A DNA stretch of 64,000 bases from OCS116 cluster bacterium AG-430-B22 (GCA_003209955.1 QCOD01000001.1:33330-97329); one strand, 5' to 3'; shown: positions 1 to 17,603, counted from the first letter of the stretch. Notes: generated by a model from the letters alone, not told the origin. Translations and numbers: made by a program.

Positions 1-1437
1 ACTCAAGATTTTCCCAAACATCAATTTGCCTGGAAAGTTTTAGGAGCAATATTAGGAGCAACAGGAAGAAATTCCGAAGCCGTAGATGCTATTCGGACAG
101 CAATTGAATTATCCCCTACAGACGTTGCTGCCCATAATAACTTGGGCATCACGCTGAAAGGACTAGGAAGATTGGATGAGGCTGAAGCAAGCTGCAAACG
201 GGCGATAGCTTTAAATCCTAACTTGGCGGAAGTCCATAGCAACTTAGGCAACATACTCAAAGAATTAGACAGATTAGACGAAGCTCTAGCAAGCTATAAC
301 CAAGCGATAGCGCTGAAACCTGACTATGCCGAAGCCCATAGTAACCTCGGTAATGTTTTAAAGGCTAAAGGTAAACTAAAGGATGCAGAAAAGCGCTACC
401 TAAAAGCTATATCCATAAAGCCTGATTATGCTGAAGCTTATTATAATTTAGGTAATATACTTAAAGAGTTAGGTAGATTAGAAAATGCAACTAATGCTTA
501 CAAAAAAGCAATTGAACTTAAATCAGACTATGTCGATGCAAGAATTAATCTTGACAAAGTAATGCAGGGCATTGTGCCAACGTGGCATATAAGCATGATG
601 AATGATGAACTAAGAAATAGCACATTTTCAGATGCAATTAAAATAGCTGTTGATAAAGACTCTTTAGTATTTGAAATTGGTACAGGATCAGGTTTACTAT
701 CAATGATGGCTATTGAGAGTGGAGCAAAAAAAGTTGTCACTTGTGAGTCAATAAAAACAATTTCTGATAATGCAAAAAAAATTATTCATAAAAATGGATA
801 TCAAAAAAAAATAGATGTAATAAATAAGAAATCAACCGAAGTAAAAATTGGTGAAGATATTCCCCATAAGGCAGACTTGCTGATTGCAGAAATTTTATCC
901 TCTGAATTTGTTGGTGAGGGAGTGATAGAAAGTATGTCAGATGCAAATAAAAGATTGCTAAAGAAAAATGGAAGAGTAATACCTCAATCTGGTTGTATAA
1001 AGATTGCTTTGCTTGGCGATACTGAAGAAATAAAAAAATCAACATATATTGATAAATCTGATGGTTTTGACTTATCTCTTTTTAATTCAATTACTCAAAG
1101 AAAATTTTCTCTTAAGCTTAAGGAAAAACCAAAAATTTTAAGTGATGATGAAGATACATTTACAATTAATCTTAAAAATATAGATAATTATTCTAACGAA
1201 GAGAAAGTTTTTAGATTACAAGCAAATCAAGACGGTTTATGTCTTGGATTAATACAATGGATGAAAATAAAGCTTTACGAAGATATTGAGTATGAAAATA
1301 TTCCATACAATGTGCAATCACATTGGAGTACTCCCGTTTATGTATTTGACGAGCCTATTGAATTGAAGAAGGGGCAATTTTTGGATATTAAAGGGTTTCT
1401 AGCTAAGGATAGTGTGTGGTTTAATCATGAAAGTTAG
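1..1437 (+). CDS. TPR-repeat protein fused to a protein-arginine N-methyltransferase (PRMT)-like SAM-dependent methyltransferase; 5' partial (frame is open from base 1)
   Basis: N-terminal half is tandem TPR repeats (AxAHxNLGxxL...AL...Y..AI.L.P repeated about 5 times). C-terminal half carries PRMT motif I (VFEIGTGSGLLSMMAIESGAKKVVTCE), a double-E loop-like segment (AEILSSEFVGEGVIESM) and a THW-loop-like segment (QSHWSTPVY). Frame 1 has no stop from position 1, so the true start lies upstream of the window. Confidence 0.6.
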   Translation, partial: TQDFPKHQFAWKVLGAILGATGRNSEAVDAIRTAIELSPTDVAAHNNLGITLKGLGRLDEAEASCKRAIALNPNLAEVHSNLGNILKELDRLDEALASYNQAIALKPDYAEAHSNLGNVLKAKGKLKDAEKRYLKAISIKPDYAEAYYNLGNILKELGRLENATNAYKKAIELKSDYVDARINLDKVMQGIVPTWHISMMNDELRNSTFSDAIKIAVDKDSLVFEIGTGSGLLSMMAIESGAKKVVTCESIKTISDNAKKIIHKNGYQKKIDVINKKSTEVKIGEDIPHKADLLIAEILSSEFVGEGVIESMSDANKRLLKKNGRVIPQSGCIKIALLGDTEEIKKSTYIDKSDGFDLSLFNSITQRKFSLKLKEKPKILSDDEDTFTINLKNIDNYSNEEKVFRLQANQDGLCLGLIQWMKIKLYEDIEYENIPYNVQSHWSTPVYVFDEPIELKKGQFLDIKGFLAKDSVWFNHES

Positions 1438-14224: not shown

Positions 14225-14836
14225 TTGGAGAAGATGATGACCAAAGAAGTAGATTTTTATTTTGATTTTGCTAGTCCTAATGCATATTTAAGTCATAAAG
14301 TGCTTAAATCAATTTCTGAAAAAACGGGGGCTAAAGTTAATTATATTCCTGTTCTCTTAGGAGGTATATTTAAGGCTACTAATAACAACCCACCAATGGT
14401 TCAATTTGCTGAGGTAAAGGGCAAATTAGAGTATCAATCACTTGAAATAACGAGATTTATTGAAAGACATGGTTTGCAATCTTTTCAAATGAATCCACAC
14501 TTTCCAGTAATAAGTTTACAAATTATAAGAGGCGCAATTGCTGCTGAAATGGATGGCTATCTTGAAGAATATATAGATAAAGTATTAGTTCATATGTGGG
14601 AGCAACCCAAGAAAATGGATGATCCAGAAGTCATCAAAGAAGCATTTGTTGAGTCAGGATTAGATGCCGATAAATTGATGAGTCAAATGCAGGATCCTGA
14701 TGTTAAAGCAAAACTAATATCTAATACTGAAGCAGCCGTTGAAAGAGGGGTTTTTGGTATACCAACTTTTTTTGTTGGTGATCAAATATTCTTTGGAAAA
14801 GACACATTATGGCAAGTTGAAGAATTACTTATATAA
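14225..14836 (+). CDS. 2-hydroxychromene-2-carboxylate isomerase family protein (DsbA-like thioredoxin fold, NahD-like)
   Basis: VDFYFDFASPNAYLS near the N-terminus and FGIPTFFVGDQIFFGKDTL near the C-terminus closely match NahD/HCCA isomerases. Confidence 0.8.
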   Translation: MEKMMTKEVDFYFDFASPNAYLSHKVLKSISEKTGAKVNYIPVLLGGIFKATNNNPPMVQFAEVKGKLEYQSLEITRFIERHGLQSFQMNPHFPVISLQIIRGAIAAEMDGYLEEYIDKVLVHMWEQPKKMDDPEVIKEAFVESGLDADKLMSQMQDPDVKAKLISNTEAAVERGVFGIPTFFVGDQIFFGKDTLWQVEELLI

Positions 14837-14872
14837 TTTGACTTTATCTAATTAGTTTAATACTTACGCGTT

Positions 14873-15157
14873 ATGTGGAATTTAAAAAATAAAATATTAG
14901 TTTTCTTTATAGCTATGTTATTTTTCACTTCGGTTTCAGCCGAAGAACTTCTACATGACCATCACAAACATCATGATCATATATCTGTTGAAATAGATTG
15001 TGATTTTTGTGTTAATGCAGCTCCTGAGTTTGAAAATGAAGTTTTTAATTTTGGAGACCAATTCCTTAATATTTCTGAGTTTATTCAAACTCTTGATAAT
15101 CAATTTTTAGACAACAATACTTCTGAATTTTATTCCAGAGGACCTCCTCAAATTTAA
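14873..15157 (+). CDS. small secreted His-rich protein (candidate metal-binding partner of the downstream receptor)
   Basis: 94 aa; N-terminal signal peptide (ILVFFIAMLFFTSVSA), then HDHHKHHDH immediately after the predicted cleavage site; 38 bp upstream of the His-rich TonB-dependent receptor on the same strand. Confidence 0.5.
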   Translation: MWNLKNKILVFFIAMLFFTSVSAEELLHDHHKHHDHISVEIDCDFCVNAAPEFENEVFNFGDQFLNISEFIQTLDNQFLDNNTSEFYSRGPPQI

Positions 15158-15195: not shown

Positions 15196-17523
15196 TTGAA
15201 AAATTTACTTTTAGCGCTTTTGTTTGTGGGTGCTTTAATAATACACAATGAAAAAATATATTCGAGTGAGATAGATGAAATTGTAGTTACATCATCTTAC
15301 ATTGATAAAAACCTATCAGACCTAGACGATCCAATTCATGTAATTGGGGGAGATGATGCCACTTTTGACTCTACAGTAAGCTTAGGAGAGTCACTTGATA
15401 ATCTTCTTGGAGTTCAATCCTCAGATTTTGGTGCAGCTGTTGGTCATCCTATCATTCGTGGTTTATCAGGTAATAGAGTTAGAATTATGAATAATGGTAA
15501 AACTCTAAGAGATGTTTCTACTATTGGTGACGATCATATGAATGAGGTTGATTTAAATGATATCCAACAAATAGAAATAGTTAGAGGACCATCATCACTT
15601 CTATATTCTAGTGGGACTGTTGGAGGCATAATAAATATCATTGATAATACAATTGCTAGAGAAGATTTTAAAGAACCCAAATTTAATATTGCTTTAGAAA
15701 CCCAATCTGTTAACGAAGGAGAAGCTGGAAGTTTTTCTTATCAAAATAACATTGGTGGTTTCAATGTAAGTTTGGCTTATAAAGATTCTCAGTTTGATAA
15801 TTATGATATTCCAAATGGTGCAATCATTCATGCCGAGGATGAGCATCACGATGAAGATGAGCATCACGATGAAGATGAGCATCACGATGAAGAAAATCTT
15901 GGTTACTTAGAAAACTCTGACTTTGAATCAACATCACAAAGATTTGGTATTTCAAAAACAGGTGAATGGGGATATTTCGGTATTTCTTATAAGAATTCTG
16001 AAAGTCTTTTTGGTGTTCCATTCCACGGTGATGGTCACGAAGATCATGGAATGCATGGTAAAGAAGAACATCATGAAGAAGAAGCACATCATGATGAAGA
16101 TGAGCATCATGATGAAGATGAACATGAAGGTCATGATGAGCATGAAGGTGAAAGAATTTTTTCCAATACAGAATCTGATATTTTTGATGTTGAAGGTTCT
16201 TATGTCGTTAATAGTTCTTGGCTGAAAAAGATTAATTATTTCTTTAGATCTTCAGATTATCTTCATACTGAGCAACATGCTGAAGAAGAACATCATGAAG
16301 AAGAAGAGCATCATGACGAAGATGAGCATCATGACGAAGATGAGCATGATGAACATGGTCATGCTGAAGGCCCAACAAATTTTGAAAATAAATCTAAGGA
16401 GTTTGGTTTTGTTTTTGATTTAACAAATGATGTTGTTAAGCAAAAATTATCTATCAATTATGTAGAAGAAGAAATTTCTATAGTTGGTGCTGAAGCATTT
16501 ATGAGGCCAACAGATAATGAAGAATTATCCATTGGTTATTATTTGTCTAAAGAATTTGGATTATTCGATGTTGATTTCGGTATTAGGTATGATGATATTT
16601 CTCGTAAAGGTTCATTAGCTCATCATGAAGAAGAGCATCACGATGAAGACGAACATCACGATGAAGACGAACATCACGATGAAGACGAACATGAAGAGGA
16701 AATTGACTTCTTTAATAAAGATTATAGCGAAACAAGTTTTGCTGTTAATTTTTCAAGAGAAGTTAATGATAACTTTACAGTTAGTCTAGGCCTAGCAAGA
16801 GTTGAAAGAGCGCCATCACCAGTAGAGTTATATATGAATGGAGCTCATTTAGTTACTGGTCGCTTTGAAGTCGGCAATACAGAACTTGAATCTGAGAGCG
16901 CTAACAACATTGATTTGAATGTATTTTATAAAAATAATAATTTCTCTTTTAGAGGTAATATATTCAAAAATGATATTGATAACTACATCTATCTACAAGA
17001 TGAAACGGAAGAAGAGCATGAAGAGCATGAAGAGCATGGCGATCATGATGACCATGGTGGTCTTATATTAGCAAACTTCCTGCAAAAAGATGCTGAACTT
17101 GAAGGTTATGAATTTGAAGTTAGTCAGATTTTTACTTTTGATAGAGGTAATCTTACTTTATCATTCGGCAGAGACTCAGTTACAGGCGAGTTTAAGAATG
17201 GAATGAATATTCCAAGAATTGTGCCTGCAAGAAATATTATAACTGTCTCTTACTCAGAAGATAATCTTCTAGCAAGATTGACTTATAAAGATGTTGAAGA
17301 GCAAAATGATATTGGAGAAGGTGAAACAGCAACTGAAGCTTATGAAATGCTTGATTTTTCTTTAAAGAAAACTTTTGTTCTTAATAATCAAAATGAAATA
17401 AGTTTATCATTGTTTGGTAAGAATCTTCTTGACGAAGTGGCCAGAAATCACGCTTCTTTTGTTAAAAATGAAGTTCCTTTACCAGGAAGAAATTATGGTC
17501 TTAAATTAAATTATAAATTTTAA
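15196..17523 (+). CDS. TonB-dependent outer-membrane receptor with five His/Asp/Glu-rich insertions
   Basis: Signal peptide; TonB-box-like EIVVTSS; plug-domain motifs (IRG..G..RV....NG); C-terminal terminal Phe (KLNYKF). Five low-complexity insertions (EHHDEDEHHDEDEHHDE and variants) sit in the barrel region. TTG start with AAGGAGA RBS 5 nt upstream. Confidence 0.8.
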   Translation: MKNLLLALLFVGALIIHNEKIYSSEIDEIVVTSSYIDKNLSDLDDPIHVIGGDDATFDSTVSLGESLDNLLGVQSSDFGAAVGHPIIRGLSGNRVRIMNNGKTLRDVSTIGDDHMNEVDLNDIQQIEIVRGPSSLLYSSGTVGGIINIIDNTIAREDFKEPKFNIALETQSVNEGEAGSFSYQNNIGGFNVSLAYKDSQFDNYDIPNGAIIHAEDEHHDEDEHHDEDEHHDEENLGYLENSDFESTSQRFGISKTGEWGYFGISYKNSESLFGVPFHGDGHEDHGMHGKEEHHEEEAHHDEDEHHDEDEHEGHDEHEGERIFSNTESDIFDVEGSYVVNSSWLKKINYFFRSSDYLHTEQHAEEEHHEEEEHHDEDEHHDEDEHDEHGHAEGPTNFENKSKEFGFVFDLTNDVVKQKLSINYVEEEISIVGAEAFMRPTDNEELSIGYYLSKEFGLFDVDFGIRYDDISRKGSLAHHEEEHHDEDEHHDEDEHHDEDEHEEEIDFFNKDYSETSFAVNFSREVNDNFTVSLGLARVERAPSPVELYMNGAHLVTGRFEVGNTELESESANNIDLNVFYKNNNFSFRGNIFKNDIDNYIYLQDETEEEHEEHEEHGDHDDHGGLILANFLQKDAELEGYEFEVSQIFTFDRGNLTLSFGRDSVTGEFKNGMNIPRIVPARNIITVSYSEDNLLARLTYKDVEEQNDIGEGETATEAYEMLDFSLKKTFVLNNQNEISLSLFGKNLLDEVARNHASFVKNEVPLPGRNYGLKLNYKF
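15835..15894 (+). repeat. in-frame tandem 18-nt repeat block 1: (gagcatcacgatgaagat)x3, encoding (EHHDED)3
   Basis: Three perfect or near-perfect 18-nt units at 15841-15858, 15859-15876 and 15877-15894, read directly from the sequence. Confidence 0.9.
16030..16150 (+). repeat. in-frame His/Asp/Glu codon repeat block 2 (degenerate 18-nt units)
   Basis: gcacatcatgatgaagat / gagcatcatgatgaagat / gaacatgaaggtcatgat / gagcatgaaggt, preceded by ggtcacgaagatcatgga...gaacatcatgaagaagaa. Confidence 0.8.
16270..16368 (+). repeat. in-frame His/Asp/Glu codon repeat block 3
   Basis: gaagaacatcatgaagaagaagagcatcatgacgaagatgagcatcatgacgaagatgagcatgatgaacatggtcatgct. Confidence 0.8.
16618..16698 (+). repeat. 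in-frame tandem 18-nt repeat block 4: gagcatcacgatgaagac then (gaacatcacgatgaagac)x2
   Basis: Units at 16633-16650, 16651-16668 and 16669-16686, followed by gaacatgaagag. Confidence 0.9.
17007..17060 (+). repeat. in-frame Glu/His codon repeat block 5: (gaagagcat)x3 then ggcgatcatgatgaccatggt
   Basis: EEEHEEHEEHGDHDDHGG encoded by 9-nt repeats read directly. Confidence 0.8.
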
Positions 17524-17547
17524 CTAATATTAAAATTTATTTGAGAT

Positions 17548-17588
17548 AATGCTCAGAGTTCTTTAGCTCTGGGCATTATTTATTTTAA
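17548..17588. terminator. rho-independent terminator between convergent genes (TonB-dependent receptor + / MFS transporter -)
   Basis: aatgctcagag-ttcttt-agctctgggcatt inverted repeat (one G-U wobble) followed by atttatttt. Confidence 0.55.
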
Positions 17589-17603
17589 CCAAGATACAAA
17601 GTC

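Follow-up and report, generated by a model that had tools for sequence, protein, structure and literature searches.

The closest described relative of the gene treated here is ZnuD, the outer-membrane receptor of Neisseria meningitidis (PDB 4RDR/4RDT/4RVW; NF038289). Its buried high-affinity zinc site consists of Asp99, His100, Glu340 and His499, and its His/Asp-rich loop 3 supplies peripheral metal sites, for which capture by a 'fishing net' has been proposed (PMC4557270). Two cysteines in loop 3 draw its two His/Asp stretches together, and all ZnuD homologues carry His/Asp-rich regions at this place (PMC2895646). Meningococcal ZnuD is 97-99% conserved, without variation clustered in the loops (PMC2895646). 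We analyzed a stretch of 64,000 nucleotides, called the window below, from OCS116 cluster bacterium AG-430-B22 (GCA_003209955.1 QCOD01000001.1:33330-97329). It contains a ZnuD-like receptor gene in which not one but five tracts rich in His, Asp and Glu are encoded by in-frame tandem DNA repeats, and the number of repeat units differs between close relatives. The gene probably specifies a ZnuD-like TonB-dependent transporter (TBDT) of a PS1/OCS116 alphaproteobacterium, whose five repeat-built loops, varied by slippage with near-neutral effect, would capture metal for import.

The receptor is encoded by one open reading frame (ORF) with a TTG start codon, preceded by AAGGAG at seven bases, and begins with a signal peptide. 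The N-terminus that follows appears to fit the TonB box of TBDTs: the motif is DEI[IV]VTSS in the close PS1-clade relatives L001-L007 and E[IV]IV[VN]SS in L008/L009. Pfam assigns a Plug domain (PF07715) to residues 42-145 (E 3.4e-17, 63.3 bits against a cut-off of 23.9) and a barrel domain (PF00593, TonB_dep_Rec_b-barrel; E 7.1e-24). The AlphaFold2 (AF2) model places 22 barrel strands between residues 162 and 774, with a predicted local distance difference test score (pLDDT) of about 70-87 in the strands. Plug, 22-strand barrel and TonB-box-like motif are thus all present, and the protein is a TonB-dependent transporter. When the model is compared with known folds using Foldseek, the top matches are all TBDTs with ZnuD first (E 3.7e-28), followed by the copper transporter OprC and haem receptors. 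By sequence, the closest solved structure is again ZnuD (4rdr; E 4.3e-38 with phmmer and 7.4e-58 with a family profile), and ZnuD (NF038289) is also the best of 23 NCBIfam matches, with 226.2 bits. Identity to ZnuD is only about 20%. Because the NCBIfam cut-off is missed, the loop-3 cysteine pair is absent and Glu340 could not be mapped, yet three zinc ligands align, the receptor is to be called ZnuD-like and not a ZnuD.

The coordinates of the gene, its five tract-encoding blocks and related features are collected in Table 1. His, Asp and Glu make up 87% of the 143 tract residues, and the tracts carry 44 of the 51 His of the receptor. Arrays were called with Tandem Repeats Finder (TRF), and all five are in frame inside the single ORF. 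The unit in four of the blocks has 18 nt and encodes EHHDED, and that of block 5 has 9 nt and encodes EEH. The original prediction, made from the window sequence alone, had spelled out blocks 1, 4 and 5; these spellings are letter-perfect and the arrays are recovered by TRF. It had also remarked that the blocks are richer in GC than their surroundings, which is true but trivial: GC content is 0.44 in the blocks against 0.31 in the rest of the gene and 0.326 in the window, and 0.41-0.46 is expected from His, Asp, Glu and Gly codons alone, so that GC holds no separate signal. The ORFs that cross the blocks on the minus strand or out of frame arise from the low complexity of the repeats and are artefacts.

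Table 1. Features of the receptor locus. Positions refer to the window, except for the partner homologues, where they refer to the relative named; array calls are those of TRF
Feature	Position (nt)	Strand	Residues	Description	Predicted place in the fold, or counterpart
Small partner gene	14873-15157	+	94 aa	38 nt upstream of the receptor gene	
TonB-dependent outer-membrane receptor gene, ZnuD-like	15196-17523	+	775 aa	One ORF, TTG start	
TonB-box-like DEIVVTSS	15274-15297	+	27-34	Read from the translation	
Asp113-His114	15532-15537	+	113-114		Plug apical loop; aligns with ZnuD Asp99-His100
Block 1, HAEDEHHDEDEHHDEDEHHDEE	15829-15894	+	212-233	Three 18-nt units at 15841-15894: GAGCATCACGATGAAGAT twice, then GAGCATCACGATGAAGAA; array 15838-15893, period 18, 3.1 copies, 100% matches, score 112	Predicted extracellular loop L2, between strands 3 and 4
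Block 2, HGDGHEDHGMHGKEEHHEEEAHHDEDEHHDEDEHEGHDEHEGE	16024-16152	+	277-319	Degenerate 18-nt array 16061-16125, period 18, 3.6 copies, 87% matches	Extracellular loop L3, counterpart of the ZnuD His/Asp-rich loop 3
Block 3, HAEEEHHEEEEHHDEDEHHDEDEHDEHGHAEG	16276-16371	+	361-392	18-nt array 16270-16353, period 18, 4.7 copies, 86% matches	Predicted loop L4, between strands 7 and 8
Block 4, AHHEEEHHDEDEHHDEDEHHDEDEHEEE	16618-16701	+	475-502	Three 18-nt units at 16633-16686: GAGCATCACGATGAAGAC, then GAACATCACGATGAAGAC twice; array 16625-16692, period 18, 3.8 copies, 96% matches, score 122	Loop L6, preceding the strand aligned just after ZnuD loop 6
His551	16846-16848	+	551	In the loop after the VERAP (FRAP-like) motif	Aligns with ZnuD His499
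Block 5, EEEHEEHEEHGDHDDHGG	17008-17061	+	605-622	9-nt array with GAAGAGCAT three times at 17011-17037; array 17011-17056, period 9, 5.1 copies, 83% matches, score 57	Predicted loop L8, between strands 15 and 16
Partner homologue in L001	5679-5963				
Partner homologue in L003	2809-3093				
Partner homologue in L011	5688-5960				
Partner homologue in L063	5675-5947				
Partner homologue in L099	9709-9954				
Partner homologue in L102	9690-9965				

Identity between units has to be judged against codon usage, which is strongly skewed (CAT 83%, GAT 86%, GAA 75%). Since EHHDED is itself repeated and the bias is strong, the greater part of the identity between nucleotides follows from these two facts: when the same peptide is re-encoded with codons drawn from the usage of the window, 252.7 +/- 5.1 positions match the position one unit away, and 269 do so in the real sequence (P = 0.00055). 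It might be argued, then, that the repeats are a by-product of selection on a repetitive peptide under codon bias, without recent duplication or slippage, the more so as resampling alone yields 252.7 of the 269 matches and blocks 2 and 5 taken singly are not significant. We consider this highly improbable. When synonymous codons were shuffled within each block, with the local codon composition kept, 62 codons were identical in register where 47.3 were expected, and none of the 3000 permutations reached 62. The P-values per block are 0.012 (block 1), 0.036 (block 3), 0.004 (block 4) and 0.095 (block 5), with block 2 not significant. Rare codons (CAC, GAC and GAG) recur in register: block 1 reads GAG-CAT-CAC-GAT-GAA-GAT in every unit, block 3 places CAT-CAT-GAC and block 4 CAT-CAC-GAT-GAA-GAC. 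The units are therefore related by duplication and not only by selection on the peptide. Also at odds with a mere by-product are the clean whole-unit indels that separate near-identical alleles, and the different synonymous unit versions fixed across whole blocks in sister lineages (both below). The arrays are direct repeats with a nucleotide identity beyond what the protein needs, as is typical of in-frame variable-number tandem repeats (VNTRs).

A separate observation concerns the spelling of the His-His-Asp (HHD) motif. The codons CAT-CAT-GAT-G form a perfect palindrome, and adjacent units are able to pair. In the window gene and 25 PS1-clade relatives (L001-L009, L081-L098), which are not phylogenetically independent, the perfect 10-nt palindrome CAT-CAT-GAT(G) is used in 19% of 320 cases, against approximately 44% predicted by codon usage. 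A change at exactly one central base (CAT-CAC-GAT or CAT-CAT-GAC) is seen in 72% and a change at both in only 2%. The share of GAC among Asp codons is 41% inside the blocks and 12% outside. This skew may reflect avoidance of palindromes or hairpins. Slippage promoted by hairpins was considered as a general mechanism and rejected, for block 1 folds no better than shuffled sequences (z +0.4 and -0.4); shuffled sequences are surpassed in block 2 (z -2.6), in block 5 (z -2.1) and, on the minus strand alone, in block 4 (z -3.0), and nowhere else. Four minus-strand 'terminator-like' hairpins that a promoter/terminator scan places in the blocks (16087-16114, 16309-16336, 16636-16681), where 0.9 are expected, are by-products of pairing between repeat units rather than terminators.

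To compare copy numbers, relatives were obtained from a scan of one genome per species, and the PS1 group supplied the gene from nine genomes and 18 metagenome contigs, whose tracts were measured between conserved flanks. The gene is in frame in 26 of the 27 relatives; L090, an old Sanger read with a frameshift, was dropped. The nearest relatives of the window gene are uncultured marine alphaproteobacteria of the OCS116/PS1 clade. Across the gene, nucleotide identity is 95.7% for L001 (an OCS116 single-cell genome), about 90% for L002 and L003 (PS1 single-cell genomes) and 80-86% for L004-L007. A scan of metagenomes with a DNA pattern taken just right of block 1 returned 18 loci, none of them closer to the window than L001.

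Tract lengths in the relatives fall into classes spaced one unit apart: 21, 27 or 33 aa for block 1; 27, 33 or 39 aa for block 2 (35/41 in one subclade); 23 or 29 aa (24/30) for block 3; 15, 27 or 33 aa (38-40) for block 4; and 10, 13 or 16 aa for block 5. The original prediction expected length polymorphism in multiples of 18 or 9 nt, and this is what the comparison yields: alleles that are 99.3-99.9% identical outside the blocks differ by 18, 36 or 54 nt in blocks 2 to 4 and by 9 nt in block 5. L085 and L093 (99.9% identical, 2 differences in 1950 positions outside the tracts) are separated by 18 nt in block 2, and L087 and L093 (99.8%, 4 positions) by 54 nt in block 4. L083 and L097 (99.7%, 5 positions) differ by 18 nt in block 3 and 9 nt in block 5, L004 and L097 (7 positions) by 18 nt in block 2, and L002 and L094 (99.3%, 12 of 1632 positions) by 36 nt in block 2 and 18 nt in block 4. 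Outside the blocks L001 is 96.1% identical to the window; within them it has one unit (18 nt) more in block 1 and one unit (18 nt) more in block 4. In 12 of 12 cases the removal of one contiguous segment of the given length from the longer allele yields the shorter one with 0-2 mismatches, and no indels were found outside the tracts in these close pairs. The copy number of whole units is therefore polymorphic between close genomes.

De Bruijn assemblers are able to collapse, expand or break near-perfect arrays, and the copy-number differences could in principle be artefacts of assembly. Tara scaffold L103 (1208 nt), for example, ends inside a perfect four-copy block-1 array (approximately 1130-1208). 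Close relatives of the small gene upstream of the receptor are numerous (clusters of 155 and 272) but lie on contigs of 0.5-5 kb, and the protein collection, searched for a strain of the same species, holds no full-length receptor above 74% identity. Moreover, if a near-perfect array of 72 nt collapsed, the 15-residue allele of block 4 (L085 and L093) would result. Nonetheless, we judge it improbable that artefacts account for the differences. Most arrays measure 36-117 nt and can be spanned by single reads of 100-150 nt. The same alleles recur in independent assemblies: L006, L086 and L098 share their unit counts, the single-cell allele of L003 equals that of metagenome contig L094, and L085 equals L093 in block 4. 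Between the single-cell genomes L002 and L003, which contain no mixture of populations, there are differences of 36 and 18 nt. SAR86 assemblies that are complete or built from long reads (L011, L024, L063) have arrays too, and the same unit indels are seen in protein clusters from many samples. Short-read assemblies probably do break at these arrays, and as broken or mis-sized arrays affect the assemblies, the receptor gene is probably under-represented and mis-measured in metagenomic catalogues.

Comparison of the units between lineages gives evidence of homogenisation. In block 4 of the window CAC is found in three of three units, against CAT-CAT in three of four units in L001. L002, L003 and L094 have five block-1 units each and are 98.6-99.3% identical elsewhere, and the units that read CAT-GAC, CAC-GAT or CAT-GAT differ among them. 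All four visible block-1 units of the Tara contig L103 read CAC-GAC. Where the blocks of close pairs, which are not independent, have equal length, divergence amounts to 3.3% within the blocks and to 1.4% outside. Synonymous unit versions that are specific to a lineage and run throughout a block are the signature of homogenisation. Neither a constant copy number nor divergence of the units at synonymous sites, the two results that the original prediction had named as speaking against it, is what we find. Its statement that unit identity implies recent expansion or homogenisation is supported, with qualifications: the lineage-specific spellings speak for homogenisation, but codon bias by itself explains most of the identity. 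The window has three units in block 1 where every relative above 80% gene identity has four or five, so that contraction is as likely as recent expansion, and the allele of the window looks more like the former.

These patterns would be explained if replication slippage added and removed units in frame and at the same time spread one synonymous unit variant through an array. Unequal exchange over short homologies is the less likely process because the arrays are only 54-117 nt long, which is short for RecA-dependent exchange. Purifying selection would then keep the tracts His-rich and their length bounded. Within the closest groups, about 9 unit events accompany 64 substitutions counted over some 1.9 kb outside the tracts; as a crude estimate, the copy number of an array would change at roughly 50-100 times the per-site substitution rate. 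Such a rate suggests drift as in VNTRs rather than rapid switching, and the copy-number variation itself is probably near-neutral.

Alternatively, the length variation could be adaptive, with diversifying selection by phages or other docking agents, or local tuning of metal capture, acting on contingency-like arrays. The tuning of metal capacity or antigenic surface that the original prediction brought up would be a speculation of this kind. The variation is confined to surface loops, and loops 3 and 6 of the homologous ZnuD are exposed and antibody-reactive (PMC4557270). Different units occupy the same five loops in different lineages, substitution-type divergence in the blocks is 2.4 times that outside, and the adjacent partner gene is unusually divergent and mosaic. 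Turnover by slippage alone, however, predicts both raised divergence within the blocks and unit indels. The His/Asp/Glu composition is kept, so that surface chemistry is barely altered between alleles, and the rate given above lies orders of magnitude below that of classical phase-variable loci. Since all changes are in frame, there is no on/off switching either. We therefore regard adaptive variation as unlikely and retain near-neutral drift by slippage.

The pattern extends beyond the PS1 group. Homologues with 40-55% amino acid identity are found in SAR86, SAR92/Porticoccaceae and Halieaceae genomes, and a database search at E <= 1e-20 yields more than 3,700 proteins, of which the named ones are only generic TonB-dependent or 'iron complex' receptors. 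In eight clusters of at least 90% identical proteins (SAR86, SAR92 and PS1-like; 8-15 full-length members each), all 29 of the 29 internal indel regions lie in tracts rich in His, Asp, Glu and Gly, and the indels mostly comprise whole motifs such as EGH, EEH, GEEHE and HEDED. Of 70 homologous genes, 68 have in-frame arrays according to TRF, and in most of them the arrays occupy the same five places along the gene. The units are different ones, including HGDE (12 nt, up to 7.9 copies), DEDHA (15 nt), EEEHHD (18 nt) and EDHDDHD (21 nt). As the sites are the same and the units differ per lineage, the loops have been built and rebuilt independently by tandem duplication. The metal-catching surface of this receptor family would thus be assembled and remodelled lineage by lineage, and alleles with three, four and five units form a natural series in which tract length could be related to metal capture. 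Searches of the available literature returned no earlier description of this family or of His-rich TBDTs in SAR86, SAR92 or PS1, and no earlier report of repeat polymorphism in ZnuD-like loops.

Two further observations were made on the family. At 929 and 1090 aa, the SAR86 receptors L020 and L063 exceed the other homologues by 150-300 residues, implying a large insertion. The PS1/OCS116 receptors are approximately 45-55% identical to those of SAR86 and SAR92 (L010-L067 versus L001-L009) and share the upstream partner gene with them; transfer of the two-gene cassette between these co-occurring alpha- and gammaproteobacterial ocean clades is a possibility.

Outer-membrane barrels usually have long loops on the outside and short turns on the periplasmic side. 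In the AF2 model every block lies between an odd-numbered strand and the even-numbered one after it, and the even-to-odd connections are turns of 2-7 residues; on this model the tracts would face outward. Block 2 starts where the first His/Asp cluster of ZnuD (241-HSHEYDD, loop 3) aligns, and block 4 comes directly before a strand whose alignment partner in ZnuD follows closely on loop 6 (residues 430-459; PMC4557270). For these alignments it should be noted that the chain numbering of 4rdr runs 14 ahead of that in PMC4557270, as checked on the HSHEYDD motif. Asp113, His114 and His551, which align with three of the four ligands of the buried zinc site (Table 1), are invariant in an alignment of 46 family members. 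By position only, a candidate counterpart of Glu340 is the invariant E359-Q360-H361, found where strand 7 ends. Because three ZnuD ligands are conserved, the substrate would be a metal, with zinc the most likely one.

Directly upstream of the receptor lies a small partner gene. In the window its product starts with a signal peptide, is rich in His at the mature N-terminus (EELLHDHHKHHDH), contains a C-x-F-C motif and has SRGPP at the C-terminus. A small gene of 81-104 aa is always found 35-50 nt upstream of the receptor family in PS1, SAR86 and SAR92 genomes. Its products likewise carry a signal peptide, with H-x-H-rich mature N-termini, C-x-[FL]-C and, at the C-terminus, SR[GA]PP, and the gene is the only conserved neighbour of the receptor. 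No Pfam family matches the partner protein even at E <= 10; it may resemble the DUF2946-type partners of metal TBDTs. Judging from its sequence, the partner looks like a dedicated secreted or periplasmic metal-binding protein.

The remaining neighbours, in the window (about 6 kb on either side) and in a SAR92 and a PS1-like relative (within 10 kb), are unrelated metabolic and transport genes. The partner gene is unusually divergent and mosaic when window 14225-15157 is compared with L001 and L003: the protein is 74% identical to that of L001 and 88% to that of L003, and the DsbA-like gene just upstream is about 98% identical to both. Unlike the partner, the receptor is nearer to L001 (95.7% of nucleotides) than to L003 (89.5%). 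This suggests that the partner gene is under recombination or diversifying selection. Downstream, a gene for a transporter of the major facilitator superfamily (MFS) follows the receptor at approximately 80 nt in the window (gap 17524-17603); in L001 (8365-13975), L003 and L004 the two are separated by 4.5-5.6 kb that carry unrelated genes. The intervening ORFs of L001 are unannotated except for one with a cytochrome-c haem motif. The interval between the receptor and MFS genes is a strain-variable insertion or deletion.

With regard to function, we propose by homology to ZnuD that the long, flexible tracts would act as low-affinity, multivalent capture sites and raise the concentration of a divalent metal at the cell surface, in the manner of a 'fishing net'. 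The metal would then be passed to a buried site of Asp113 and His114 (plug) and His551, and imported with energy from TonB. The small secreted His/Cys protein encoded upstream may take part.

Several findings weigh against this proposal. The NCBIfam score of 226.2 bits is far short of the ZnuD cut-off of 950. ZnuD Glu340 remains unmapped, as the middle of the barrel aligns by neither phmmer nor the profile. There is no Cys anywhere in the receptor and hence no equivalent of the ZnuD loop-3 cysteine pair. The mean pLDDT of the model is 57.9, with the plug and all five tracts below 50. Among the Pfam-scanned neighbours (approximately 6 kb on each side in the window) none is a znuABC, zur, tonB or exbBD gene, and none of these genes occurs within 10 kb in the SAR92 and PS1-like relatives. 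A search for a Zur/Fur box upstream of the receptor gave only weak AT-rich palindromes, where chance matches are expected at about 20% GC. With respect to copy number, the comparison within the own lineage is limited to L001 and the polymorphism is shown mainly in sister lineages, and the compared sequences all come from short-read assemblies, which can miscount or break arrays.

Some of these findings would also suit a receptor for another substrate (Co, Ni, Cu, Cd, Fe, a metallophore complex or haem), in which the tracts serve that substrate or, for example, charge shielding. The unmet cut-off and the lack of zinc-uptake and Zur genes nearby fit such a receptor, as do OprC, a copper transporter, and haem receptors as the next-best folds. 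By general coordination chemistry, tracts of His, Asp and Glu bind several transition metals. The FRAP/His motif occurs in ZnuD as well as in haem receptors, and ZnuD was at first misannotated as a haem receptor (PMC4557270). On the other hand, three of the four ZnuD zinc ligands are conserved and invariant in the family, ZnuD is the top match by both sequence and fold, and a His/Asp-rich loop 3 is a hallmark common to all ZnuD homologues (PMC2895646). A non-zinc substrate is accordingly a possibility to be taken seriously, though a minority one, and metal import with zinc as the first candidate remains the reading we prefer. If the family, present in several uncultured bacterioplankton clades, does import zinc or other trace metals, it offers a molecular handle on metal acquisition from dilute seawater.

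A more far-reaching interpretation takes receptor and His/Cys partner as an uncharacterised trace-metal cassette of PS1/OCS116, SAR86, SAR92 and Halieaceae, and the loops as an adaptive generator of diversity. We hold this to be doubtful. If true, streamlined free-living populations would keep many loop-length alleles, for the capture of picomolar metal or in relation to phage susceptibility, and a contingency-like strategy would operate outside the host-pathogen setting.

Compared with the known systems, the receptor is most similar to ZnuD. Both have a plug and a 22-strand barrel, Asp-His at the plug apex and a His after a FRAP-like motif, and the His/acid-rich loop 3 starts at the same aligned position. 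The two differ in the loops: His tracts are found in five loops here against one in ZnuD, the loop-3 disulfide is missing, and the tracts are encoded by tandem repeats whose total length varies among near-identical alleles. ZnuD belongs to a mucosal pathogen and the present receptor to a free-living marine oligotroph, where no znuABC or zur lies nearby and a small partner gene is conserved upstream. A further likeness is with ZnuA and ZinT, whose disordered stretches of His, Asp and Glu are thought to bind zinc weakly and feed a high-affinity site (as cited in PMC2895646 and PMC10957091). The His-rich flexible segments are alike, and the small upstream protein also has a His-rich mature N-terminus. 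ZnuA and ZinT, however, are soluble periplasmic proteins with one such segment, and no sequence homology to them was found, although no search aimed at it was made.

At the DNA level two known classes can be considered. Simple-sequence contingency loci have units of 1-8 nt, and they shift the reading frame or promoter spacing to give on/off states at high frequency. The receptor gene resembles them in that slippage in repeats of a surface-protein gene is the proposed source of heritable variation. Its units are of 9 and 18 nt, however, and no on/off states were seen among the relatives and clusters; it is not a phase-variable contingency locus. The likeness is closer to the in-frame VNTRs of bacterial surface-protein genes (PMC3899988), with repeats in multiples of 3, the frame kept, variation exposed at the envelope and homogenised units. 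In contrast to those, the repeats here encode metal-ligand residues in the loops of a transporter barrel rather than a stalk or adhesin domain, and five arrays in one gene vary independently, with 2-6 copies and a modest estimated rate. In the behaviour of its DNA, the locus is an ordinary in-frame VNTR in a surface-protein gene.

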